From: a virus
Lineage: Duplodnaviria; Caudoviricetes
IMG/VR virus record: IMGVR_UViG_3300028888_000125
Location: 5,567-69,566 of that record
DNA length: 64,000 nucleotides
Strand: one strand, 5' to 3'
The notes beneath the pieces were generated by a model, which made no database searches, was not told the DNA's origin, and saw nothing but the letters and a program-made list of their open reading frames with translations. Both the position numbers and the translations under genes were made by a program. Position 1 is the stretch's first letter, and each line of letters begins with the position of its first letter. This document shows positions 3,001 through 62,236 of the stretch, piece by piece.

Positions 3001-3845
3001 TCCACGTCGTAGACAAAATCAGATAACGTTTGGTGCATTTCCCGCCATGTACCTTCCATGTAGTGGAAGACACGGACGGCGTAGAAACGATCGGTGTAGC
3101 CGTAACGCTTGGCGAAGCCAGCCGCCGAGACGGCGTCGTCTTCATACGAAACAGCCGTAAACTGATAACAGGGAACGACAATACCGACCAACTCGAGATT
3201 GTCCCGAACCATGTTTCGTACTTCGAGCAAATTCGTATCGATGGTCAGAAGAGGGTTTGCCACATTTGTATTGAACTGAGCACTGAATGAGCAATTTGCC
3301 GCATCGACGACCGTGGAAACGTGTCCCTGGCTGTCCGCTTTTACCTTGTAGACTTTCCGGACAAAGATATCAACAGGATAATGAATACCGAATTGGAACC
3401 GTCCAATCTGGATCTTCGTAGAGGTCGGCAACGTGATCTTTCCAACGGAAACATCCGTCGTCTTTTCCACATCTACGGTCGTGTCGGTGTTAGCATTGAC
3501 TTCGACACAATTATTGATAAGCCAGTTTCGTTCAAAGAAAAGAGTAACCTTTGTCGATGCTGGTGTGCTGTAGAGATGAGCGTAATCGAAATCGCTCATA
3601 TGCCGATACAGAGCGTTCATCGTATTCGCCCTGTACGGATACAGATTGTGAAGAATGTTCTGCGTTTCCGTGGCGTAGCCTGCCGTGATCGTAGCAGCCG
3701 TCTCCATCAGAAATGTGAAGACGTTGTTCGGATCCATGACTTTTCGACCACCAAGAACCGTATTCTGCAAGTCATCCACAATCTGTGACTGGATACGGAG
3801 AGGGTTTGTGAAGAGACCCAGAGTTATTTCTTCTGCTGTAGGCAT
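1..3845 (-). CDS. Large virion structural protein (phiKZ gp87-like baseplate wedge), C-terminus runs off the window (>1280 aa)
   Basis: ATG at 3845 with AGAGGA SD. Reads MPTAEEITLGLFTNPLRIQSQIV...DPNNVFTFLME...LYPYRANTMNALYRHMSDFDY, a phiKZ-type baseplate signature. Sampled stretches stay open to position 3; absence from the ORF track is consistent with no stop inside the window. Confidence 0.75.
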   Translation of the reverse strand, partial: MPTAEEITLGLFTNPLRIQSQIVDDLQNTVLGGRKVMDPNNVFTFLMETAATITAGYATETQNILHNLYPYRANTMNALYRHMSDFDYAHLYSTPASTKVTLFFERNWLINNCVEVNANTDTTVDVEKTTDVSVGKITLPTSTKIQIGRFQFGIHYPVDIFVRKVYKVKADSQGHVSTVVDAANCSFSAQFNTNVANPLLTIDTNLLEVRNMVRDNLELVGIVVPCYQFTAVSYEDDAVSAAGFAKRYGYTDRFYAVRVFHYMEGTWREMHQTLSDFVYDVDQVTAYVKVLTDMDQIEIRIPQIYFTKGMMGSRVRVVVYSTLGEMNEDISSLPLTDLQTSFLADDQMTILDSYNEPLRRVSYIVTVPRERKIISGSNGLSFDELRNRILHDSTYSVLITAMDVAAYFKDQGFLSKKYVDNITNRIYLALKTIRDNTDSIIGAGQFDTVFKADMLQTVEENGQLVSKNYRQSQVPISPKEFMVLPSAVYKYDADADTMTLLSDQEMVELDSLPVKDKLTRLNSNVYTFSPFHMKFTVNDKWPLAGSYNLMNPFVRDIRFKSPVSSIAPDNDSVATQLSVHSATFTHLNNGTGGYRLLLTLYRTQDIQNVFVEEGDDNSIKNIQVVLTTKASSGETVYMLGEYMGRTVGDDQKINFIFNFQTDYRIDDEDNIHITNLYNIVTEKAGCYLPLQGVEDGFSIQVYIREEALPYDSYSDPFPVGYRPTAVQLDYVWLASQCMTLTFGESLNFILNNVHCTINEEGYKKYPTTVFATYQTDVFRRYTEDDVDGTTVKPSMVGQLVFPLEYLHHKGDVVLSSTSENTFNQLLTFSDNAESIHTLELVSTPTARSSDANRWKTVARMLMVISCGMPELLGRYTLVNPTATDGARVWSRSVGPVSYTVSYSDETEKWLFKRDDTVLFEAEGDADVDTIQELVWTPSTVIDETTSTPVVVSLNDQDVEYTIETVDLLDYILNSDVPSFSDVQNASRNGSLYDGVFFYEPEARGSEFIFVGDCALDDRPAENTFLEGNGAIYRRDWSLFNYDFTSVLPTTERLSALLTDLTSLKKLDLDESDVTVTNLATKYSLTPAKIVEVNRARFPWIKLMTVASLEDLQAYADSRQIQGISLNDCKHYREVVTNAREYASISAFSSRVSDPPENSLVYITDVTDAQAANPVFGVYPTGDTPTGAIFVYQGNRLATCLLRTTSFDNARIYFETMLGVSSGYAILIKKEGETVYHAIPNWNLDIETSWWSFVDKWPWEISEWLDPSGRVVEDVSVAIEER

Positions 3846-3860
3846 ACGGGTATTCCTCTT

Positions 3861-5300
3861 TTATGGGTTAACGAAGAACTTCCGATACATGCTGTCGAAA
3901 GTCTCTTCCATTTGAATCTGATTCGGATAGTAGTAATCTCGTGCAAAGTCGTTGGCGCTACGGCGTGTTCGCAGACCAAAGTCCAGATCCATCAGGGAAT
4001 TGATGAATTGCTTGGTGGCATCGTCACGCAGGGTTGGAACTTCAACTTGTCTCCATTCCATTCGGAAACCGTTTGGATCGGACGTAATCCAGGGAAGCGC
4101 CGTGAAGTTTGCGAATTTGTCGAAATACGGGACTCGCCGATGCAACAGTTCCGGAGCACGGCCGTTGGACTTGTTTGGAGACGCGGAGGTGCCGTTCTTC
4201 GACTGATTGATCGTGGGGCAATAGCGTTCTACGAGTCGGTTGAAGTCATAGAGAATGGGGTATTTGTCATACTCAATCACGTTGCAGGTGAACGGAACCG
4301 AGATGTGCTTTGCCGCTTCAATGGAGTAATCACCTTGTTGTTTATTGAATATTCCGCCAATCGGGATGACCGACGGAAAGCACCCTGTACATTTGACATA
4401 GTGACGAATATACGGTGTACCTGGCTCCATAACAAAACTGTAGATGGAGACGGTGTAATTCATCCGAAGGGTGTCGATATCGTCCGCATAGGCGCGCATG
4501 ACGTTATACCGAACATTGTGAATATAGCGTACCCAGTAGTTGATGATAGAGAGAATAGGTCCACCCTGAACATCCTTGAACGTGAGATTCAACGTGTAGT
4601 TTCCTCTAGCCCCCATGACATCGTCCGCATCAACGACAGATTGGGCTTCTCCGAAGTAACCGCCATCCGTCGAGCCAACAGACAATGACAAATCGGGGAA
4701 ACCCGAGATATTCTCATACGAGTTCATCAACGGGACAAAGAAAGCGTTCTGCGGATCGTGGATAGGACAGTTATTGACCAAGTTCCAATAAGGGTTCTCT
4801 TCTGCACGGCCAATCTTGACTTTATGTAGGTTCGTATCCAAAAGAGCCCGAATAGCAAACGCCGTGGAGTTGACATTTGTTGTATCCAGTGGAACCATAG
4901 CTGGATCAGCACGCAAATTCGAAGATTGTAAACAAAGTCTTGGACGGGAGAAGAACGTCAGACCGTGTACCTGGTGGTTTGTCGGAAGTGGACAGGAATG
5001 AAGACGATCGATTGCCGAGAAGAATTCCTGTTGCTGGTTGAAGTATCCGCCCAAACCTTTGCTACGCCAGATAAGGTCTTGAATCATCTCCTGTTGAACT
5101 TTGTTGAGATACTGGTCCGGATTCTCACTTGCGAAACGAATCCGCTGGAGTGTCTTCTCTACGACTTCGGGTTCCTTGAGAATCGTATCCAGACTGGCAG
5201 ACGTGTATTCTTCAGGCACAAATGTTTTGAAATAATCCAGGAGTTCGGAGTCACTGTAGTGTTCTCCTCGGTCCATGAAATTAGGGGTGGATTGGGTCAT
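3861..5300 (-). CDS. Virion structural protein (phiKZ gp88-like baseplate/tube-initiator family)
   Basis: 479 aa ORF with SD GGAGG. Motifs GLTFFSRPRLCL and NYTVSIYSFVME...TGCFP resemble tail-tube-like folds. Synteny with the adjacent wedge gene. Confidence 0.65.
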   Translation of the reverse strand: MTQSTPNFMDRGEHYSDSELLDYFKTFVPEEYTSASLDTILKEPEVVEKTLQRIRFASENPDQYLNKVQQEMIQDLIWRSKGLGGYFNQQQEFFSAIDRLHSCPLPTNHQVHGLTFFSRPRLCLQSSNLRADPAMVPLDTTNVNSTAFAIRALLDTNLHKVKIGRAEENPYWNLVNNCPIHDPQNAFFVPLMNSYENISGFPDLSLSVGSTDGGYFGEAQSVVDADDVMGARGNYTLNLTFKDVQGGPILSIINYWVRYIHNVRYNVMRAYADDIDTLRMNYTVSIYSFVMEPGTPYIRHYVKCTGCFPSVIPIGGIFNKQQGDYSIEAAKHISVPFTCNVIEYDKYPILYDFNRLVERYCPTINQSKNGTSASPNKSNGRAPELLHRRVPYFDKFANFTALPWITSDPNGFRMEWRQVEVPTLRDDATKQFINSLMDLDFGLRTRRSANDFARDYYYPNQIQMEETFDSMYRKFFVNP

Positions 5301-37159: not shown

Positions 37160-39625
37160 ATGGCAAAAGAGTACGATGAATCTTCGATTCGGACCATGGA
37201 GCCGTTGGAGTACATTCGTCACCGAATGGGACTCTACCTGGACTCCAAGGATGTCTCCGCAGACACCCAGATTCTCAAGGAGTTGATTGATAACTCTTGT
37301 GACGAGTCTCTTGATCCAAAGAAACTCTATCACATTAAAGTCGTTATCTTCACGAACGATAATAAAACGTATCAGGCGGCGGTTATTGACCACGGTCGTG
37401 GTGTTCCGCTTAAGAAGCTGAAAGATGCTTATACGAATACTCAGACCTCTGGTAAGTTCTTCTACGATTACGGTGGAGCGACTACCGGTAGCTACGGTCT
37501 TGGTTCAAAAGTGACTGTCGCGTTGTCGACGCATTTCTTGGCATATTCGAAACGTGCGGATGGTTTTGCCTATTTGAAAGTGAAAGACCAGCACGTGGTG
37601 GACAATAAGGTTCTATCACCTCTCGACAAAGATGATTCGACGATTGGTACGACGGCATTCTACGTTCCCGATCCAACGGTTCTTCCCGAAACACGATCGT
37701 ATTTGTCCGATCCAAATGGTCTGGCCAAGACCATTGACACGTTGAACTTCATGGCGGCTATCAAACCGAACACGATTTTCACGGTCTACAAAGTCAACAC
37801 ACTTCTGGATCAGACATTCTTCGACAAATCTCCGATTGCTCAGTGGAAATATTTCCGTGATGTGACGGGAGAGGTGATCTATCAGAGCCCGTCGGATTTC
37901 AGTGTTGAAAAATACGTGATGACTCGGTTCGGTATTACGTGCCAAAAACCCGAATGGAGTCTGCATCTAAAGAACTCTGTTCGTAAAGAAGCTCAGACCC
38001 TTGAGTACGATATCCATCTCTTCGTATCAGATGGCAAGCGAAAGCAAACGGGACTGCTCGGTTCCGTCAATACCGTTTTGATTCAAACATCCGAATCCTA
38101 TCACTTCTCGGTTCTACGGGAAGTCCTGAAGAAACGGATTGCTCCGTATTTGGATGACACCGATGCTGATCTGATGGCATACTTTAGTACGACGTATGAT
38201 TTTCCCTTCTACGGGCATGTGGTTATCAGTTTCCTGGGTGCTGAGTATGTGACACAGACTAAGTCAATTTTCAAGGATCCTGCATTTGCAAGCATCTACA
38301 AGCACGACTTGAACAAACTGATTGACCAATCCGTTCCTGATGAAGTCTGGGGTCGTCTCTATGCGGCGATTGCAGACGATCTGAACGAACGATTCATCCA
38401 GGCGAACAACCGTGCTTTGAAGTTGACAGCAGGTCTCAAGAACATCGCCTATGACATGTCGAATCCCGACTGTTACACGCCGTGTCGCTCAAAGGATCCA
38501 ACCAAGACGGAACTGTTCATCACAGAAGGAAACTCCGCTGGTAATTCCGTCCGAAAAAATCGAGACGCCAATTACCAGGCCGTTTTCAGATTGCGTGGTA
38601 AGCCGATCAATCCGTTGACGGCATCCGCTGCAGAGCTCAAGGTGAACCGTGTCTATCAGGATCTCGTGCGTCTTATCGGTGTTTCTCCCAGAGATACGGA
38701 TTTGTCCCACATGAACTTCAATCGTATCGGTCTCCTAGCTGACGCTGATCCGGATGGTTACCACATCGTGGCTCTCCTTATCGGAACGCTCATGAAGATC
38801 AATCCGAGAATCATCATGTCAGGCCGAGTCTTCGTGGTCAATCCGCCATTGTACATTATCACGAACAAGTCGAACAATATCTTCATTCGTGATGCGAACG
38901 CTCTTCTGGATATTCGCTCGTCCATCTATCAGCGTATGCTGAAGATATCGGCGTATTATCCGTATACAAAGACATTCCATCAGCTCAACAAGAACGAATA
39001 TCGAGATCTTGTCTATTTCGTCAGACGGTATAGTGCTATCATGATGAATGTCTCGAAGCACCTGAACGTCGAGCCGCTCGTTATTGAAAAGCTGATTGAC
39101 TGCCTGCCCTACATGGAGCCAGGCAATATCAAGACGGAAGCTATCAAGAAGCATCTGAACTTGATGGATTGCCGGTATAACCAGACGTTGAACTCTCTCA
39201 TGCTCATCTTTGATGGTGGCGTTGAGAAGTCTGTTCAGCTCAATCGATTCAAGCCCGAAGTGGAAGCGTATGTCAAGCCCATGCTGGAGCGTTTTGGCTG
39301 GAGGCACTTTGTCTTAATCGCATCGTCCATCCTCTCTGGAGAAATCGACGAACGTCCTGTTTCGTTCATGATGTTGGATGATATTTTCAATGAAATTGAT
39401 CGGGTGTTCCCGATTCATCGATTTAAGGGTCTAGGTGAGTATTCCAACGAACAGCTTGAGAATACTTGTATCAATCCAATTACACGTTCAATATCAGTTG
39501 TGAAGGATATAGGCGATGTTCAATCTATCTATCAATGCCTGGGCGTGGATACGTCATATCGTAAGAGTCTGGTTAAAAAACAGCTACGGGATTTATTCCG
39601 AGAAGTTGATTCTGAAGCCGTCTGA
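37160..39625 (+). CDS. gyrB: Type II topoisomerase B subunit (GyrB/ParE-like) with TOPRIM insertion
   Basis: GHKL motifs ELIDNS.DE, DHGRGVP and GSYGLGS. TOPRIM motifs ITEGNSA, LRGKPIN, DADPDG and RFKGLGE. Confidence 0.9.
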   Translation: MAKEYDESSIRTMEPLEYIRHRMGLYLDSKDVSADTQILKELIDNSCDESLDPKKLYHIKVVIFTNDNKTYQAAVIDHGRGVPLKKLKDAYTNTQTSGKFFYDYGGATTGSYGLGSKVTVALSTHFLAYSKRADGFAYLKVKDQHVVDNKVLSPLDKDDSTIGTTAFYVPDPTVLPETRSYLSDPNGLAKTIDTLNFMAAIKPNTIFTVYKVNTLLDQTFFDKSPIAQWKYFRDVTGEVIYQSPSDFSVEKYVMTRFGITCQKPEWSLHLKNSVRKEAQTLEYDIHLFVSDGKRKQTGLLGSVNTVLIQTSESYHFSVLREVLKKRIAPYLDDTDADLMAYFSTTYDFPFYGHVVISFLGAEYVTQTKSIFKDPAFASIYKHDLNKLIDQSVPDEVWGRLYAAIADDLNERFIQANNRALKLTAGLKNIAYDMSNPDCYTPCRSKDPTKTELFITEGNSAGNSVRKNRDANYQAVFRLRGKPINPLTASAAELKVNRVYQDLVRLIGVSPRDTDLSHMNFNRIGLLADADPDGYHIVALLIGTLMKINPRIIMSGRVFVVNPPLYIITNKSNNIFIRDANALLDIRSSIYQRMLKISAYYPYTKTFHQLNKNEYRDLVYFVRRYSAIMMNVSKHLNVEPLVIEKLIDCLPYMEPGNIKTEAIKKHLNLMDCRYNQTLNSLMLIFDGGVEKSVQLNRFKPEVEAYVKPMLERFGWRHFVLIASSILSGEIDERPVSFMMLDDIFNEIDRVFPIHRFKGLGEYSNEQLENTCINPITRSISVVKDIGDVQSIYQCLGVDTSYRKSLVKKQLRDLFREVDSEAV

Positions 39626-39641
39626 AGAGGAGAAGAAAACC

Positions 39642-40463
39642 ATGTCCAATGTACCCATGCCAAATTTCACTGTAGAAGAAGAAGCCAAAGATCTCTTGGC
39701 TCAATTCTACTCCATCCGTGATCCGAAGATTGATCAGGATCCGTTGACTCCGACAAAGACGTGTCTGGAATACCAGATGGGACCGAAGTATTTCGACGTC
39801 CTGGCGGCGTATGCGTTGCAGTTAGGGGATCCGGACAATCACGATCCGAAGATCGTCCCGTTCGCCAACGAATTCGCTGTGGAGATGGTGCTCCGTGCCA
39901 ATAAGCGGTTGCACTTTGTCCCTGAGGACGGAGAGTCGAAGTTGACCACCTCCATCGAATCCTTGGTGAACAGAGGCGTGATGGGCAAGGTGACGTCCAG
40001 TCATATCGTCACACGCCTCATGTCCATGAAGGAAGACGAAGTCAACTTCTACTGGCTGATCATGTGCGCGTGTGTCTTTGCCATGTGGAGACCACGGGTC
40101 GAAATTGTTTACAAGATGCAGGCAAATGCGTATCTGACGTACGCGAATCGTTTCTTTACGGTTCCCGACGCAGGTCAGCAGGATTACAATCTGTATCTGT
40201 GTAACGATCGAGCTGGTTTTATGAAGTCTCTCCAGCATATCTTGAAACGTTATACAGTGGAATCCACGGTCAATGATGTGTCCAAGACACAGATGGAGAT
40301 GGTGGCAATCATGAGCCGCATCCTGATTGCTTTTACGTTGAGCCGAACAGCCGAAAAGGACGAATATCGAAAGCTTGGTATGGCATATATTACAAAGCTG
40401 AATCAGTTCTTCGCGAGCCGTATTCGATTCTATCAGAAAACCACACCAACGGAGATCAATTAA
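39642..40463 (+). CDS. Hypothetical helical protein
   Basis: ATG 39642 after GAGGAG; 273 aa. Confidence 0.65.
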   Translation: MSNVPMPNFTVEEEAKDLLAQFYSIRDPKIDQDPLTPTKTCLEYQMGPKYFDVLAAYALQLGDPDNHDPKIVPFANEFAVEMVLRANKRLHFVPEDGESKLTTSIESLVNRGVMGKVTSSHIVTRLMSMKEDEVNFYWLIMCACVFAMWRPRVEIVYKMQANAYLTYANRFFTVPDAGQQDYNLYLCNDRAGFMKSLQHILKRYTVESTVNDVSKTQMEMVAIMSRILIAFTLSRTAEKDEYRKLGMAYITKLNQFFASRIRFYQKTTPTEIN

Positions 40464-41038: not shown

Positions 41039-41096
41039 CAATTAGACATGTGAGTGTGTAGTGGAGTTAATCCACTGCACACTCGAAAGGAGGATT

Positions 41097-41759
41097 ATGA
41101 ACGTTTGCATTCAAATTCAGGAGAGTAGTTACTTCGAGAAATTCCCGGAAACGGACAAGATTGTCCAGTGTTTCAATCCTGATAACAAGAAGTGTATCAT
41201 TCCACTTTGCAATCTACAATCTTGGCAAAGTATCCGAAACAAGGATGTCCTGCAGGATGTGAAGACGAAAGTTCGTACGATTATTATTCGTGGCAATGTT
41301 AATGCCCTCAATGCACATGACGTGCAGTTGTTTTCTACGAAGCTGATGCATGAGTTCCCGAAGATTATCGACTGGACGACAGAAGGAAAAGGTTGCTTGA
41401 ACAGCTCTTGTCTTTCAGTGCAGCAGTTCAAAGCGGTTCTTTATCACGAGCCGATCATGTGTCTGCGGGAGATTACATATTTGGATTGTCATGTTGCCTA
41501 TGACAATGTGGGAAGAATGGTTGGAACAAAATGGGAGTGGATGGTTCGAGATTTGGCAGACGAGAAGTGGCCTCTTCGTTCCGAAGAAGAGTTGAAAATG
41601 GTTCCGACATCGAACAAGCAGGCACAGGAGGAATATGAGAGAATGCGCGAGTCGTGGCTGATGCGTTTGTTGGACACCTACGGAATACAGTCTCTTCGGA
41701 AGACGTTGGTTGTGTGGCCGGGATGGGAACTATATGCTAAGAAAGTAGATATGAAATAG
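41097..41759 (+). CDS. Hypothetical protein immediately upstream of the cassette array
   Basis: ATG 41097 after AGGAGG; 220 aa; no recognisable recombinase motif. Confidence 0.6.
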   Translation: MNVCIQIQESSYFEKFPETDKIVQCFNPDNKKCIIPLCNLQSWQSIRNKDVLQDVKTKVRTIIIRGNVNALNAHDVQLFSTKLMHEFPKIIDWTTEGKGCLNSSCLSVQQFKAVLYHEPIMCLREITYLDCHVAYDNVGRMVGTKWEWMVRDLADEKWPLRSEEELKMVPTSNKQAQEEYERMRESWLMRLLDTYGIQSLRKTLVVWPGWELYAKKVDMK

Positions 41760-41766
41760 AGGTTAG

Positions 41767-41806
41767 ACGTGGTAGACAGTAATGTCTACCACGTTTTTAT
41801 TTTTTT
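41767..41806 (+). terminator. Intrinsic terminator insulating the cassette array
   Basis: 12-bp stem ACGTGGTAGACA-GTAA-TGTCTACCACGT followed by a long T tract. Confidence 0.85.
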
Positions 41807-42759
41807 GGACGCCATCTACTTTTCTTGATGTAGATATCAAACTATCTCCATTCGGGGTAACCATTATCTTTGTAGTTCCTACACTTCCACTATTACCGGT
41901 AGTTATGGACCTATATACATTAGAGTAGCTGATACATCAGGACATCTGACAACAGGTAATACGGCTGGATCTACATCATCTGGCGTCCCTTGGACGCCAT
42001 CATCAATCCCTTGAGCTGAATGACGATTATATCCTCCTTGTACATTAACGTAAACAACTAGACTTCGTCCATTCGATCCTGTTTCAGCACTACCGGTAGT
42101 ACCTCTTACGCTGTACAGCAAATCACTCAGAGTGGTGGTTTCAGTGTTCGATACAACATAAGTTCCATCGATGGCGTCCTTTCAAGGGACGCCATTTTCT
42201 GTCAGATCTGCGTTTGTTCGATTGATCGTTAGAACACCTAAATTATTTGGTGCATACACTCTCCATTGATTAGTACTACCGGTGGTGGATCTGCTGTACT
42301 TATGTATAGAGTTGTTTCTCTAAGTACAAACGGAGAACACAACAGTCCTATGATACCTAGTTATGATTATGGCGTCCTATGGACGCCAAGATTGGAGACA
42401 GGCCTGACATTATTGTAGGGTATACCTCCAGATGGAGTAATATGATACAGAAAAATAGAACTACCGGTGAGCAATATCAAGGTGCTGGTCGCGTCAAGTA
42501 TGTTAGAACAAATGCGATATATGACTACGGTATACCTTTTACAGATAGTTATGGCGTCCACGGGACGCCATAGAGATAGTTCACAGACGAGAACGTTGCG
42601 TTCTCTCCAGCAGGAGTTGCAGAATGAACGTTAATCTTTAATGGAGCATAATTCTGACTTTGATTACCGGTAGTGATCAATCGACCTGGCGTCTCTATGC
42701 GGCTACAATTAATACATCGATTTCACCGTCGGCACAACCCAAGTCTCTCTATGGCGTCC
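41807..42759. repeat. Array of ten silent in-frame variable cassettes in alternating orientation, bounded by ACCGGT and TGGCGTCC sites
   Basis: ACCGGT at 41895, 42092, 42278, 42463, 42666. TGGCGTCC at 41981, 42172, 42370, 42552, 42752. GGACGCCA at 41807, 41992, 42187, 42381, 42563. All ten ACC-to-GGC distances are multiples of 3 and stop-free. Confidence 0.92.
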
Positions 42760-42824
42760 AGCCCCAAAATCATGATATGATTCCCCTGTCCATCATGTTA
42801 TCTGTACCGTAAGGAGGTACCGTT

Positions 42825-44249
42825 ATGCTGACTCATATGGCACAGATCTCCGAGACCCTGACCCACCTCATCAATCCTATCGCAGAGCAGGCCTGTCGGA
42901 AGATCCTCGACCAGCTCGCCCTTTCTGATGTCGTCGGACCCATGTTCCAGATGGTCTCGGACATTCGAGCTTCCTCCAAGTCCTGGGAAAGGCGTTTTAA
43001 ACCAAAGGTCAAATCCGAAACGTCTTTTAAAGGCGTCATTAAGTACAATCCTGTTTCTACAGGACTCAAGTACGATGTCTCCCTCCCTGGTCAGCACATG
43101 GATGCCCAGCTCATGCGCTCGGACACCTTTGTGACAAATCCTCTCTTCTTTGACCCGACACACAACATTGTTCTCTTCGAACGGTTCCACCCAGCCAACA
43201 TTCAGGTAGACTGTTCCTTGACGTTCATCGATCGCGTGCAAGGTTACGACGCCATTAACCGTTTTCATTCTCTCTTCAATCGCGGAGAGTATTTTCAACT
43301 TCAGGACTTCACGACAAACTATCCGTTACCGCCAGAACATCTTGTCGCTCTCAACAAATTAGCTAAGTTGGCTGGCATTGAAAAAGGCTGTTTTGGACAA
43401 TGGCTAACCGCCTGTTCGAAAGATCGTATCACGTGGGAGGCATCCAAGCGTCTCCGTAATAGGACTTACGAAGTCGTTGTCAAATATGATACGTTTGAGG
43501 CGATGGTTTACATCGACTACACTCCTGAAGCTCTACAGATCGATTCTCCTGGAAAGGCCCCGCAGAATCTTGTGCTGAACTTCCAGTTGACGATTCAGTT
43601 CTCCCGCCCTGACCGAATCTACATGCGCTATCCGATTGTCATTCACAATCAGCTCATCCCTGATTCTCTCATCACGTCGGATCGTAGAGATGCCTACAAT
43701 GACACGTATGACGTTTTGCACCATCGTTTCAAGGGAATTGACGAGGCGCACCAGATGTTCAAGGAGCACGCTCGGAAACCGAAACGTCTTCCCTGGTACG
43801 ATGACTGGCTTGTTCCTCGTTTCTCTTCGTTCCATGAAGAGGGTGCGGAGGCGTTTCTTATCGGAGTCGTCCTGCAGGACACGGAACCTGTCATGACAGG
43901 TAAACTAGAAGACCCGAAACCTCCAGAGTACACGACTGTTGATCTGACATCCGACATTGATAATTATTATCTTTCCACAGATGTCGTCGCTTATTTTGAG
44001 AAGAATCTACGGGATTGCCTAAAGCCAGAAGCTCTCTACAATATAGGGGTTTATATCGGTGACCGTCAGGTATCTCCTAACTGTCTCAAGTTTGACGGAC
44101 ATGTCCTCTCGATTCCTAATTCAATTTTTGACCATGACAAGATCTGTCGTCTCGTCCTTTCTCGCACACCGCCAAGAGCCGAGGGTAATAACCCCTGGTT
44201 CTTTGTGTTAAAATGTGTTATTGAGGTCGGAGACGTTGGACGTAAATAA
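42825..44249 (+). CDS. phiKZ-like virion structural protein (baseplate/tail region)
   Basis: 474 aa, SD AAGGAGG; FSRPDRIYMRYPIVIHNQLIP motif. Confidence 0.55.
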   Translation: MLTHMAQISETLTHLINPIAEQACRKILDQLALSDVVGPMFQMVSDIRASSKSWERRFKPKVKSETSFKGVIKYNPVSTGLKYDVSLPGQHMDAQLMRSDTFVTNPLFFDPTHNIVLFERFHPANIQVDCSLTFIDRVQGYDAINRFHSLFNRGEYFQLQDFTTNYPLPPEHLVALNKLAKLAGIEKGCFGQWLTACSKDRITWEASKRLRNRTYEVVVKYDTFEAMVYIDYTPEALQIDSPGKAPQNLVLNFQLTIQFSRPDRIYMRYPIVIHNQLIPDSLITSDRRDAYNDTYDVLHHRFKGIDEAHQMFKEHARKPKRLPWYDDWLVPRFSSFHEEGAEAFLIGVVLQDTEPVMTGKLEDPKPPEYTTVDLTSDIDNYYLSTDVVAYFEKNLRDCLKPEALYNIGVYIGDRQVSPNCLKFDGHVLSIPNSIFDHDKICRLVLSRTPPRAEGNNPWFFVLKCVIEVGDVGRK

Positions 44250-58235: not shown

Positions 58236-58682
58236 ATGTCATACAACCGTGTAATCAACATACCAGAGTATATTCCATTCTACACGATCCGTAAGAAGAA
58301 CACCGTTGTCTGGGGAACCATGGGTGTTGGCATCAACATGAATATCTGGCTTCCAAGATACCATCAGGATCATCACAATCTGGTGACACTCATTCGATTT
58401 GTCGTAGGTCCGATGATATGGGAGAAGTATTTCCCCATTCCTGAGTTTTACTCGTTTGACACCTTGTATTTCCTATACAAACGCCAGCAGGAAATTGACA
58501 AAATCGTCGACAAGGATGGTAACCCTGGCGGAGTCGACACGCTCATTAAGTACTCTAAATCTTATATGGTGGCAGAAATTAAAACCCCTGTAATTCAACC
58601 AGGTGAGCTTTCACGTGGAGCAGGTATATTGATGGACACCATATCGAAGTCTTCACCCACATCATTAGGAGAATTTGTATGA
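58236..58682 (+). CDS. Hypothetical protein
   Basis: ATG 58236 after GGAGG; 148 aa; stop overlaps the nrdD start. Confidence 0.6.
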   Translation: MSYNRVINIPEYIPFYTIRKKNTVVWGTMGVGINMNIWLPRYHQDHHNLVTLIRFVVGPMIWEKYFPIPEFYSFDTLYFLYKRQQEIDKIVDKDGNPGGVDTLIKYSKSYMVAEIKTPVIQPGELSRGAGILMDTISKSSPTSLGEFV

Positions 58683-61600
58683 CAAGTTTTAAGAAACGTA
58701 ATGGTACGATTGTTCCGTTCAATATTGGAAAAGTCGTCGCTGCGATTGATGGAGCTATTCGGGACATTGCTATTTCTGGTTATCCTGCTCAGTATAACAG
58801 TCAGGAGCTGGCGACAGCCGTTCGAAACGAAGTGACACCACAGGAATCGGATACGATTACCTACGAATCCATTATGGCAGCATTACACAAAGTGTTGGGT
58901 CCGTATCCTGAACTGCACGCTGCCTACTTCAATTATGCGGAGAAACGAGACAAAGTCCGCAAGTGTATCACCGTTGTGGATAAGTCTGGTAAACAGAATT
59001 CGAAAGTTGACGTAACCGACAAATCACTGTTGCTGGTCAATACAGGTGCATCTGCAGATGTGGCTGGCTGGGATCGTTCCAAGATCGAGAACAAGCTCCG
59101 TACGGTCTTTCCCGATATGCCCGAAGTCGACGTGATTACCATTGCAAAACGTGCGGAAAACCGTGTCGTCCTCGGAAAGTTTACACAGATTACTACGGCG
59201 ATCATTCGGGAAATCGTGAACAACGAACTTGAAATCCACAATTATCCCAAACTTCCCGCAAACAAGATGTATGCCATCTCGAAGGAACATCTGGATGAGA
59301 TCCTTCTCCAGAAGTCCGTTGAGAATTCCAATGTTTCCGCCAACACACCTGAAACGGTGAATGAGAACATCGCCGAGTACATTCTGAAGAACTATGCCCT
59401 CGACAACATTTTCTCACCGGAAGTGGCGGAGGCCCACAATTCGGGTCGTATCCACATCCACGACCTGGGATTTGCTCCCACTCGTGTCTACTGCAGTGCC
59501 CACTCCATCGAGTATATCAAGAAGTACGGCCTCAAGGGTTTCGAGAACCTGAACACGGAATCGAAGCCTGCTCGTAGCGCTTCTGTTTTGACGTCCCATC
59601 TGAACACCTTCCTGGCGTCGATGCAGGCGAACTACGCTGGCGCTCTTGGTCTTGCCTATATCAACACTCTCTATGCTCCGTATATCGTCGGACTGGATGA
59701 GAAAGAAGTCCATCAGATTGCACAAGAGCTTATTTTCAATGCGTCACAGAACGCCTTTTCCCGTGGTAGTCAGACGATCTTCACGGACTTCAACATCGAC
59801 CCCGGTGTTCCGTCCATGCTGAAGGACACACCTGCTATCCATCCTGGCGGTGTCTACAAGATTTTGGTTCCGGATGAAAATGGTGTCGCCGAACCGCGTA
59901 TCATGCATGAGCGTGAATATGCTAAGGAAGGTCCTGGTGGATATCCACTCTACGAGTACTTCTACAAAACGATTGATGGCCCAGATGTTGTTGTTCGTCG
60001 GGAGTGCTACGATGAAAAGAGCGGTTTCCACTACGATGCCGAACTGGAAGAGAAGACAAAAGAAGCGGGTTGTCACATCGTCACGTACGGTGATTTCGTT
60101 TACGAGTCATCCAGGATGTGCTCGGCCCTCATTCGTGTCTTCAAGGAAGGCGACGCCAATGGCAAACAGTTCTTCTTCCCGAAGTGCCAGTTTCACGTCA
60201 GTGAAGAAATGTTCAAGGATGAAGGCAAAATGCGTCTCTACAGAGAGGCGTGCGACCTGGCCGCCCATAACGGCAGCACCTATTTTGTCTTCGACCGTAG
60301 CGCTGTCACTCTGTCGGCTTGCTGCCGTCTGTTGACGACGATTGACGATACCTCGCTTTTGAAGCATCCTGAACGTCTTCGTTTTTCTTTCCCAGGAAAC
60401 GAGTCAATTGTTGTTCGTGGAAAGGACAAAGTCGAAAAAGTCATGTCCTTCAAACAACTCTTTGAGATCGCCGCCAACGGGAACACCCTTTCTGTTGAAG
60501 AAGGAAACGAGATCTACTACACGGATGATTTCGAACTCCTCGACAATGGAAAATGGGTCAAGATGTCCCGTGTTTTGCGTCATAAGAAAGTAGACGACGG
60601 TTCCCGTAACTTGATTGCTTTCCAGACACGTGACGGTCGTATGAAAACCATGACGGCGAACCATCCTGTGTTCCTGAATGACATGGAAGGATTGTTCGAT
60701 GCTCGTCGCGTCGGTCCTGGCGTCTCTTTCAAATATGTGGGTGAGTTCTACGATCCTACGACAGCTACGATGTCTCTTTCTGATGAAGAGATGGCGATTG
60801 AATCCCAGAACATCAAAGCGAGTTTTGAAGAGGATCGCTACAACTTCACCTTCTCGTCTATTCTCTTGCATTACGATTGGGAAACGTTCATCCGTATCTT
60901 TAATGCATTCTGTCATATTCCTGGTATTGCGAAGTTTGATCCTACGTGCCAGATGATTCAGCTCATCTGCACATCCAAGACGGCGCTCGATCAAATCCAG
61001 ATGGTTCTCATGAAAAATCGTCGTGTCTCCTCGATGCGCGTGGCCCAGGTTCGCATGGGCCAGATTCGCGAGCATGGCAGAATGGCATACTGTCTCATCA
61101 TTCCAAACGTCATTGCAACCGTGAACGCAGATGGTTCGTATTACGTCAACGACTTTGAGAAGATTGAATCTTCCAAACCTCTTCACTACGATAACTTCAT
61201 CCATGACACGGAGGAGTTCCGTGATGATGAGGAAGAGTGGGTCTATGACGTCACGACAGAATCCCATACGTTCGTTGCCAACGGGTTCCATCTCCACAAC
61301 TGTGGTTTCGCCAACACAACGACGTCTCTACCGCACGCCGCCTACTTGACGAAGATGCAGGTTGAAAAAGATCCGTCTCTCAACGTCGAGGAAGTCTTCC
61401 TGAAGGAAGTCGACCGTTCGATGGATCTTTCTGTTCAATCCCACATGGAGAAGAAGACTCACATCGCTCAGATGATGGCTGGTCCCGGCCGTCCTCTATG
61501 GCAGGTCGGTAAAATCGCCTGCGATGGTCAGCCTTACATCAATCTTGACAAATGCACCTACATTCTCGGTATCATTGGTCTCAACGAAGCGGTCAAGGTC

Positions 61601-62236
61601 CTCTACGGAAAGGAACTCCATGAGTCCGACGAGATGCAGGACAAGGGTCTCCGGATCATCGCTCATATGAATCTCCGTCTCAAGGAGTACACTGAGAAGT
61701 ATCACCTCAAGTTCTCGATCGAAGAGACGCCTGCGGAAAGCGCGGCTCGTCGCTTTGCCCGTGCAGACTTGATTCGGCTTCCAGACTACGCCAAGGGAAT
61801 TGTCAAAGGTGCTGAAGACGCGGAGTACTACACGAATTCGATTCACTTGACGGCAGATGCTCCTGTTGTCCTGGTGGAGAGAATTCGCAAGCAATCCATG
61901 TATCATCCGATGATCGCCTCTGGCGCCATTATCCATGCGTTCATTGGAGAGGAGCAACCGAGTGCAGGTGCCATTGAAGAGATCGTTACGTTGACGTTCT
62001 TCCGTACCCAGTGTGCCCAGTTGACGTTCTCACCTAACTACACCTATTGCAACGTCTGCAAACGTCGTTCCATCGGACTCCATGACGTGTGTCCTTACTG
62101 CGGTTCTGAGGATACGGATCAAGTGACCCGTGTTGTCGGATACTTCTCGAAGATCAAGTCGTGGAACAAGTCCAAACGGTTCGGTGAACTGGTTGCCCGG
62201 GGTCGTGGCAACTATGCGGTTCAGAGTGCAGACTGA
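58679..62236 (+). CDS. nrdD: Anaerobic (class III) ribonucleoside-triphosphate reductase with two ATP-cone-like domains and an intein
   Basis: IHIHDL, finger loop SACCRL, EETPAES, zinc site CNVC...CPYC and glycyl-radical motif RVVGYF. Confidence 0.93.
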   Translation: MTSFKKRNGTIVPFNIGKVVAAIDGAIRDIAISGYPAQYNSQELATAVRNEVTPQESDTITYESIMAALHKVLGPYPELHAAYFNYAEKRDKVRKCITVVDKSGKQNSKVDVTDKSLLLVNTGASADVAGWDRSKIENKLRTVFPDMPEVDVITIAKRAENRVVLGKFTQITTAIIREIVNNELEIHNYPKLPANKMYAISKEHLDEILLQKSVENSNVSANTPETVNENIAEYILKNYALDNIFSPEVAEAHNSGRIHIHDLGFAPTRVYCSAHSIEYIKKYGLKGFENLNTESKPARSASVLTSHLNTFLASMQANYAGALGLAYINTLYAPYIVGLDEKEVHQIAQELIFNASQNAFSRGSQTIFTDFNIDPGVPSMLKDTPAIHPGGVYKILVPDENGVAEPRIMHEREYAKEGPGGYPLYEYFYKTIDGPDVVVRRECYDEKSGFHYDAELEEKTKEAGCHIVTYGDFVYESSRMCSALIRVFKEGDANGKQFFFPKCQFHVSEEMFKDEGKMRLYREACDLAAHNGSTYFVFDRSAVTLSACCRLLTTIDDTSLLKHPERLRFSFPGNESIVVRGKDKVEKVMSFKQLFEIAANGNTLSVEEGNEIYYTDDFELLDNGKWVKMSRVLRHKKVDDGSRNLIAFQTRDGRMKTMTANHPVFLNDMEGLFDARRVGPGVSFKYVGEFYDPTTATMSLSDEEMAIESQNIKASFEEDRYNFTFSSILLHYDWETFIRIFNAFCHIPGIAKFDPTCQMIQLICTSKTALDQIQMVLMKNRRVSSMRVAQVRMGQIREHGRMAYCLIIPNVIATVNADGSYYVNDFEKIESSKPLHYDNFIHDTEEFRDDEEEWVYDVTTESHTFVANGFHLHNCGFANTTTSLPHAAYLTKMQVEKDPSLNVEEVFLKEVDRSMDLSVQSHMEKKTHIAQMMAGPGRPLWQVGKIACDGQPYINLDKCTYILGIIGLNEAVKVLYGKELHESDEMQDKGLRIIAHMNLRLKEYTEKYHLKFSIEETPAESAARRFARADLIRLPDYAKGIVKGAEDAEYYTNSIHLTADAPVVLVERIRKQSMYHPMIASGAIIHAFIGEEQPSAGAIEEIVTLTFFRTQCAQLTFSPNYTYCNVCKRRSIGLHDVCPYCGSEDTDQVTRVVGYFSKIKSWNKSKRFGELVARGRGNYAVQSAD
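60386..61300 (+). mobile_element. Intein in NrdD (305 aa, Ser1...His-Asn, +1 Cys) with degenerate homing-endonuclease remnant
   Basis: Starts SFPGNESIVV, block B MTANHPVF, block F/G WVYDVTTESHTFVANGFHLHN|C. Removal restores RLRF-CGFAN. Confidence 0.88.

Follow-up and report, generated by a model that had tools for sequence, protein, structure and literature searches.

An array of silent, alternately oriented coding cassettes in phiKZ-like jumbo phages of the rumen and gut, a candidate system of protein diversification

Comparison with described systems

Three routes to variation of receptor-binding proteins are known in phages: invertases, diversity-generating retroelements (DGRs) and recombination between co-infecting phages. 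Phage systems of the shufflon or inversion type, such as Gin of Mu and Cin of P1, which act on tail fibres, serve proteins of this kind. Here we describe an array of ten short coding cassettes at positions 41807-42759 of a 64,000-nucleotide stretch of viral DNA (the window), which is part of the IMG/VR record IMGVR_UViG_3300028888_000125 (69,566 bp). The original prediction, made from the window alone, had proposed that the cassettes are donors swapped into an expressed gene between two sites, by analogy with vlsE, pilS or tprK antigenic variation or a two-site shufflon.

When the array was compared with shufflons and other multiple-inversion regions (Rci/sfx of R64, Min of p15B, Gin of Mu and Cin of P1), the common features were alternating coding segments, short inverted sites between them and an arrangement that is closed under inversion. 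In addition, homologous segments are inverted between relatives, as in systems of the shufflon type. Known shufflons consist of C-terminal segments with sites of 19-26 bp, abut a constant 5' part of a gene and have an adjacent recombinase gene. In contrast, the array has dead ends on both sides, with a terminator on the left and the leader and ribosome-binding site (RBS) of the next gene on the right instead of a constant gene part, and no recombinase was found in the 69.6 kb of the record (26 % of the genome). It also has motifs of two kinds (6 and 8 bp), and its two-sided bounds would make a module an internal segment.

Silent-cassette conversion (pilE/pilS of Neisseria, vlsE/vls of Borrelia, tprK of Treponema and msp2 of Anaplasma) resembles the array in that the cassettes are variable, in frame and devoid of promoters and start codons. 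Short conserved flanks and strain-specific content are also shared, as would be storage away from an expression site. The known systems are bacterial, have mostly one orientation, longer conserved framework DNA and a known expression locus, whereas the array lies in a jumbo phage of the lytic type, alternates strictly, has minimal homology at its junctions and shows foreign codon usage; an expression locus was not found in the record. The likeness to vlsE, pilS, tprK or a shufflon is therefore one that we infer by analogy.

The gp38 adhesins of T-even phages have short hypervariable segments between conserved Gly-containing motifs, at which they are exchanged between phages. The cassettes are similar in being hypervariable peptide segments delimited by Gly motifs. 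The gp38 segments, however, lie in the expressed gene and are exchanged between co-infecting phages without a silent library. With DGRs the array would share the target of diversification, a segment of about 30-45 residues of a phage receptor-binding protein, and in both a GC-rich hairpin comes after the variable region. A known DGR encodes a reverse transcriptase and has a single template repeat, to which the variable repeat is near-identical apart from changes at adenines, whereas the array holds dozens of unrelated cassettes (about 48 % identity) with all types of change, and no match to RVT_1 was found in the record.

Arrays of clustered regularly interspaced short palindromic repeats (CRISPR) and integrons share with our array the intergenic unique units between short structured repeats, the strain-variable content and one end that appears to decay. 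CRISPR arrays have direct repeats of 23-50 bp and non-coding spacers of 25-50 bp, in contrast to the inverted motif pairs and coding units of 75-117 nt observed here. Integrons carry whole-gene cassettes in one orientation together with attC and IntI, in contrast to coding fragments in alternating orientation. Hairpins of the repetitive extragenic palindrome or bacterial interspersed mosaic element type (REP/BIME), or of miniature inverted-repeat transposable elements (MITEs), are dispersed at many intergenic sites, whereas the motif of the array is confined to it within the record. We conclude that the array belongs to none of these four kinds, DGR, CRISPR array, integron or dispersed hairpin repeat. 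It is most like a shufflon (multiple-inversion region) or the silent cassettes of antigenic variation, and defining features of each were looked for and not found in the record. To our knowledge, nothing like it has been described for phages.

Organization, coding nature and exchange of the cassettes

The largest gap without genes in the window extends from 41760 to 42824, and the array lies within it. All ten copies of TGGCGTCC in the window, five on each strand, are found in the array (1.5 copies expected; ten copies reached in 0 of 100 shuffles), and no copy occurs outside it in the entire record. ACCGGT occurs nine times in the window, and five of these sites (41895, 42092, 42278, 42463 and 42666) lie in the array, where they alternate with the TGGCGTCC motifs. 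Five units make up the array; in each of them a cassette on the minus strand, preceded by GGACGCCA, and a cassette on the plus strand, followed by TGGCGTCC, meet at a central ACCGGT (Table 1). Every cassette runs from ACCGGT, the head, to (A)TGGCGTCC, the tail. Neighbouring heads use one common ACCGGT exactly, and opposed tails are separated by 3-7 nt in the window. Over all arrays the filler between tails, which forms the loop of the junction, measures 1-13 nt and is not conserved in sequence.

Every cassette is bordered by inverted TGGCGTCC pairs and the palindromic ACCGGT, and the conserved part is only 6-9 bp. The ends of the units form terminal inverted repeats of 9-10 bp, and single-strand folding of the array is far more stable than that of shuffled sequences (z = -6.6). 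The ACCGGT-centred palindromes had been described at five sites; all five are present, and the extension to 12 bp holds for some units only.

Relatives were fetched from ENA and Logan assemblies via cluster members of two proteins, encoded by the 474-amino-acid (aa) gene to the right of the array, which served as the anchor, and by the 220-aa gene to its left. One contig (L015) is an identical copy of the window locus. L019 has flanks 93 % identical to those of the window and an array of at least 13 cassettes. L020, L021 and L022 share about 75 % nucleotide and 91 % protein identity with the window, and the L020 array contains at least 24 cassettes in 3.2 kb. Another lineage is represented by L023 and L068, both from one run, with at least 18 cassettes in L068. 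All of these arrays (L019, L020-L022, L023 and L068) are found in the same slot as that of the window. At least four lineages of these phiKZ-like jumbo phages from rumen and gut carry the array.

In relatives at 32-42 % protein identity the slot is occupied by ordinary genes, without an array; three of these relatives are complete IMG/VR genomes of 278-361 kb. In the distant complete relatives (L069-L072), neither a syntenic array nor a cassette-like peptide was found anywhere, and the positive control on the genome of the window worked. What the slot contains varies within this phage group; in the array-less L017 (8795-9874) and L016 (9492-9881) it holds a gene of the phiKZ internal-head-protein family (PF12699) or a small minus-strand gene. 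Among INPHARED phages, no match was obtained by blastn with the locus or by tblastn with an open reading frame (ORF) of the array. Pattern scans of IMG/VR for whole units and for hairpin-spaced units gave only single chance matches in unrelated, mostly GC-rich contigs, and a scan of GTDB genomes for the unit gave 41 single chance matches and no array. The scan of JGI metagenomes with the 474-aa protein yielded one distant relative only.

The distances from ACC to GGC that had been listed for the ten cassettes (87, 81, 93, 90 and 87 nt on the plus strand; 87, 99, 90, 81 and 102 nt on the minus strand) were reproduced by script, and all are multiples of 3. The ten stop-free peptides of the original prediction also matched letter for letter. 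The in-frame pattern behind its chance figure of (1/3)^10 stands, but the exponent does not: because the frame offset was picked after the fact, the fair value for the window alone is (1/3)^9. When the window and the relatives were considered together, 66/66 cassettes were in frame and stop-free, whereas the other five frames were open in only 16 %. Cassette length ranges from 75 to 117 nt (25-39 codons) and is a multiple of 3 in all cases. The base composition is strongly 3-periodic, with T 42 %, A 29 % and G 13 % at position 3.

The peptides have a framework in common, consisting of a Thr-Gly start, alternating hydrophobic residues (beta-strand-like), a near-invariant central Gly and a final (Tyr/Phe)-Gly-Val, and are about 24 % identical outside it. 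Mutual identity between cassettes is about 48-50 %, with changes of all kinds. One homologous pair across lineages differs by an in-frame 3-nt insertion or deletion (indel). In one shared pair six synonymous and no non-synonymous codon changes were counted; the other pairs gave synonymous to non-synonymous ratios of 2:15, 2:6, 4:7 and 8:10, and the neighbouring 474-aa gene gave 73:6. The cassettes are real coding modules. The codon changes show that at least one module is under purifying selection while others diversify, a pattern that is not one of neutral decay.

When one cassette was modelled by AlphaFold from an alignment of all 66 sequences (predicted local distance difference test, pLDDT, 58), the model contained only a two-residue beta bridge on either side of the central Gly, which is no real support for a hairpin. 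The cassette profile gave summed weak matches to designed beta-propeller blades in the PDB (a lead only) and no match in Pfam. No Rfam family, ribozyme and intron families included, matched the array.

The cassettes have neither a start codon nor an RBS. Each frame closes 1-30 codons past the tail, cassettes on one strand occupy different frames, and the outermost cassettes lead into the terminator (left) and into the leader and RBS of the following gene (right). The cassettes are thus silent in situ, as had been proposed. Read-through from cassette 10 into the 474-aa gene was considered and rejected; although the two are in frame in the window, they are separated by a TAA, and the frame is not kept in L020. 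Some cassettes of L020 are arranged head-to-tail, and two of these joins are in frame via one codon (Gly-Val, one residue, Thr-Gly), the other joins being out of frame.

When the arrays of the window and L019 were aligned, homology to the right of the array was found to begin exactly at the last TGGCGTCC (42752). Within the arrays only three cassettes match, at 68-85 % identity versus 93 % in the flanks, and the matches end at the motifs. Inverted homologues were observed in at least three cases (window cassette 3 and L019 cassette 9; L020 cassette 8 and L068 cassette 1; L020 4061-3951 and L023). The partners across ACCGGT vary as well: cassette 2 of L019 is 93 % identical to cassette 3 of L068 and has a different neighbour, and a contig of run X6 has a join at ACCGGT between two cassettes that are not neighbours in the window (Table 1). 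The partners across the hairpins vary in X2, X4, X6 and L068. All comparisons within runs were made on assembled contigs. The exchange of cassettes that had been expected in relatives is therefore seen as gain, loss and inversion, with breakpoints exactly at both motifs, and the array is not invariant. By these alignments the cassettes behave as discrete recombination modules with breakpoints at the two motifs and a frame that is never broken.

About a dozen cassettes have a conserved 13-nt extension (consensus GCCWNGGTCCRYG) past the tail motif, which is inherited with the cassette. Translated in the frame of the cassette, the extension adds Arg-His-Gly-Pro to Gly-Val, and tail and extension together form the 12-bp near-palindrome TGGCG-TC-CGCCA. 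The extension may have been left over from the part of the native gene just downstream of the variable segment. At the terminator-proximal end of the arrays of L020 (1453-1980) and L068 (2111-2246), decayed cassettes with degenerate heads, head-to-tail order and broken frames were found. This suggests that the arrays have a polarity, with the old end at that side.

The G+C content at third codon positions (GC3) of the cassettes was 0.24-0.31 in every lineage. Resident genes, the 220-aa gene included, have a GC3 of 0.48-0.62 in the lineage of the window and of 0.72-0.76 in the L020 lineage, and the intergenic GC content (0.41) is above cassette GC3. Since the low GC3 is common to the cassettes and unlike that of resident genes, the cassettes form a compositionally separate pool that is unadapted to the carrier genomes; an earlier side remark on the foreign composition of the array agrees with this difference. 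The low values in all lineages would mean that turnover of the pool, or exchange among phages, is faster than adaptation to the resident genome. Rapid renewal of the cassettes from a pool that is shared or external would agree with this composition.

The 220-aa gene and explanations of the array

A 220-aa ORF directly precedes the array. It was found exactly where arrays are and is missing from array-less relatives, and therefore gene and array, which are an insertion relative to the distant relatives, look like one inserted module. An exhaustive hidden Markov model search of 1.84 billion representative proteins placed only three clusters in the family, and the third (P0015) was rejected as a homologue, being an Fn3-repeat protein and a chance match; the family is close to an orphan. 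The homologues are 36-52 % identical to the window copy, versus 68-91 % for the proteins of neighbouring genes, which marks the 220-aa gene as evolving far more rapidly than these. Conserved His-Glu-Pro, Asp-x-Val-Gly-Arg and Arg-Glu-Ser-Trp motifs are present and, going by their conservation, might mark an enzyme. The protein had no match in Pfam, none in the PDB by Foldseek (E ≤ 0.001) and nothing usable in the ESM Atlas, and its AlphaFold model was poor (pLDDT 52.6). No Pfam family was assigned to the ORFs neighbouring the array. As a recipient of cassettes the 220-aa protein was rejected, since motif sites are absent from its gene and no hypervariable insert of 30 residues is seen when the homologues of the different lineages are aligned.

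We consider it an even call whether the array is a silent donor library for cassette replacement in the hypervariable segment of a gene elsewhere in the genome, and this is the explanation that we prefer. The modules would act as donors for a hypervariable segment, probably a beta-hairpin at the surface, of a protein whose gene lies in another part of the genome of about 270 kb. Most plausibly the target would be a receptor-binding or another exposed virion protein. The exchange would be two-ended, with both motifs as junctions, and could proceed by site-specific or short-homology recombination, for which the 220-aa protein would be the best candidate as a dedicated factor. Recombination among motifs within the array would produce inversions and keep the alternating pattern, and exchange would be too infrequent to blur consensus assemblies.

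Several observations weigh against a donor library. No recipient gene with both motifs was found in the record, and no cassette-like peptide was found outside the array in the record or in the flanks of the relatives, so that the expressed gene with both sites that had been predicted was not recovered from either. Tyrosine recombinase (PF00589), resolvase/serine recombinase (PF00239) and RVT_1 domains were likewise not detected in the record. The motifs (6 and 8-9 bp) are far below the typical length of recombinase sites, and the tail junctions are imprecise, with 1-13 nt of filler and the 13-nt extension on some cassettes. The arrays of L020, L021 and L022, three independent samples of one strain, are identical, as are those of L015 and the window; within a strain, consensus sequences show a stable array and no rapid shuffling. 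Foreign codon usage is also not expected of segments that cycle through a resident gene. What stands of the donor-cassette interpretation is that the cassettes are coding, silent and exchanged between relatives; what is not supported so far is the recipient and a recombinase, neither of which was found in the 69.6 kb.

It is possible, and we propose it only tentatively, that the locus represents a new class of diversification. In such a class the 220-aa family would move modules of about 30 codons between the library and an exposed virion protein, or capture them from other genomes, and the pool would be shared horizontally and turn over faster than the base composition of the genome. If a stored library of dozens of internal, two-sided coding cassettes is indeed involved, it would be a fourth route to receptor-binding-protein variation, one that resembles antigenic variation in bacteria, and the first of its kind in a rumen lineage of jumbo phages of the nucleus-forming type. 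Such a library would also provide a handle on host-range evolution in uncultured jumbo phages. The 220-aa protein, together with junction motifs of 6-8 bp, is a candidate for a new recombination or capture activity, and it is a puzzle how coding DNA retains a codon usage of its own in genomes that differ widely in composition. Whether or not the donor model holds, the array is real, selected and fast-evolving, and no described system explains it.

The main rival to the donor library, although we think it unlikely, is an array of captured pieces. Segments would be cut at the two motifs from a hypervariable gene in a foreign genome, either one for a surface protein of the host or one of a competing phage, and stored as a record or as a tool (exclusion, mimicry or decoy), and the frames would be open owing to the origin of the cassettes. 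Such capture is favoured by the codon usage and by what looks like an old end in the arrays: cassette GC3 is the same whether resident GC3 is 0.5 or 0.75 and lies below the intergenic value, and the decayed cassettes at the terminator-proximal end in L020 and L068 are like the old end of an acquisition array. The repertoires of related phages barely overlap and the filler at the tail junctions is variable, which would also agree with it. No source gene was found, however, in cassette-profile searches of proteins, which were of low power (in a set of 5.8 billion proteins no protein of at least 73 aa scored with the weak profile). The pair with six synonymous changes and no others, which is shared between two phage lineages, points to selection on the peptide while it was carried by phages, and no known capture machinery is present. 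A relic is improbable to a greater degree. The array would then be the disused remnant of a repeat-protein gene (tandem Thr-Gly...Gly-Val) that was scrambled by inversions at its own repeats, and the open frames would be historical. Neither expression signals nor a recipient were seen, and the head-to-tail runs of L020, with two joins in frame by one codon, and the decayed direct run are consistent with such an origin. They have to be set against 66 of 66 cassettes open at about 50 % mutual identity where 16 % are expected, against indels that keep the frame and against the 6:0 synonymous pair. Array content and size also differ greatly between close relatives, which argues for active turnover and not for decay.

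Expression in place by unconventional decoding, in which transcripts of both strands would be spliced, bypassed or circularised at the motifs and cassettes of one strand would thereby be joined or reiterated into repeat proteins, seems very doubtful. It would account for lengths that are all multiples of 3, for the lack of stop codons, for a stable hairpin directly after each tail and for the two direct junctions of L020 that read through in frame. It would also require symmetric expression of two strands with skips of about 100 nt, for which we know of no precedent in bacteria or phages. The lack of start codons and RBSs, the other direct junctions, which are out of frame, and the negative Rfam result for ribozymes and introns argue against it. 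That the array is a non-coding repeat element with an accidentally coding look (a replication, packaging or regulatory structure, or a MITE/REP-like hairpin cluster) is hardly credible. The stable folding relative to shuffles and the terminal inverted repeats would suit such an element, but accident is ruled out by the statistics of frame, stop codons and codon positions, the hairpin motif is not dispersed in the record, and the folding signal is due to the motifs alone.

Features of the locus and genome setting

Table 1 Features of the array locus and of the corresponding loci in relatives. Positions without a prefix refer to the window; all ten cassettes are in frame and stop-free
Feature	Position	Strand	Remarks
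220-aa ORF, fold unassigned	41097-41759	+	ATG at 41097; GTG start at 41061 possible (232 aa)
Intrinsic terminator of upstream gene, left array border	41765-41805	+	14-bp stem, then T-run
Cassette 1	41808-41900	-	68-70 % homologues in L019 and L068
Cassette 2	41895-41987	+	81 % homologue in L068
Tail-to-tail junction (TGGCGTCC, 3-nt loop, GGACGCCA)	41981-41999		Equivalents: 42172-42194, 42370-42388, 42552-42570
Cassette 3	41993-42097	-	84 % homologue in L019, opposite strand relative to flanks, 3-nt indel
Cassette 4	42092-42178	+	
Cassette 5	42188-42283	-	Both neighbours differ in runs X4 and X6
Cassette 6	42278-42376	+	Joined to cassette 9 at ACCGGT in run X6
Cassette 7	42382-42468	-	85 % homologue in L019
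Cassette 8	42463-42558	+	
Cassette 9	42564-42671	-	Joined to cassette 6 at ACCGGT in run X6
Cassette 10	42666-42758	+	Other cassettes instead in L019, X4 and X6
Leader and RBS of 474-aa gene, right array border	42760-42824	+	L019 homology starts at 42752
474-aa gene (phrog_3289), function unassigned	42825-44249	+	First gene of virion (head-tail joining) module
Cassette spans	41808-42758; L019:79-1307; L020:1983-4648; L068:2255-4020		
13-nt extension sites	L020:1961-1989, 3363-3391, 4346-4374; L019:183-211; L068:2431-2459		
220-aa homologues	L020:805-1452; L068:1475-2110		Directly upstream of arrays

The 65-nt leader of the 474-aa gene (42760-42824) is nearly identical even in the L020 lineage, in which the genes share only about 75 % identity, and probably serves as a conserved late promoter or 5' untranslated region.

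The record (69.6 kb) was rated 26 % complete by CheckV, and proteins identical to those of its genes are also encoded on a public contig of 269,795 bp. It encodes split RNA polymerase subunits of the phiKZ type, DNA polymerase, NrdD, topoisomerase II and a head-tail joining protein. The jumbo-phage setting that had been assumed for the window is supported by the completeness estimate, the identical proteins on the larger contig and the split RNA polymerase subunits. The runs in which the locus was found are sheep, goat, bovine and unspecified gut metagenomes, and from this origin together with the genome evidence we regard the virus as a rumen/gut jumbo phage.

Two gene calls of the window deserve mention. 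In the 1185-aa ORF at 58679-62236, the match to the anaerobic ribonucleotide reductase NrdD is limited to the C-terminal residues (about 270), and the long N-terminal part matches no assigned family. The ORF that follows the topoisomerase II gene overlaps it by about 110 nt (37160-39625 and 39516-40463); the gene call on the public contig starts later (273 aa), and the true start is probably downstream.

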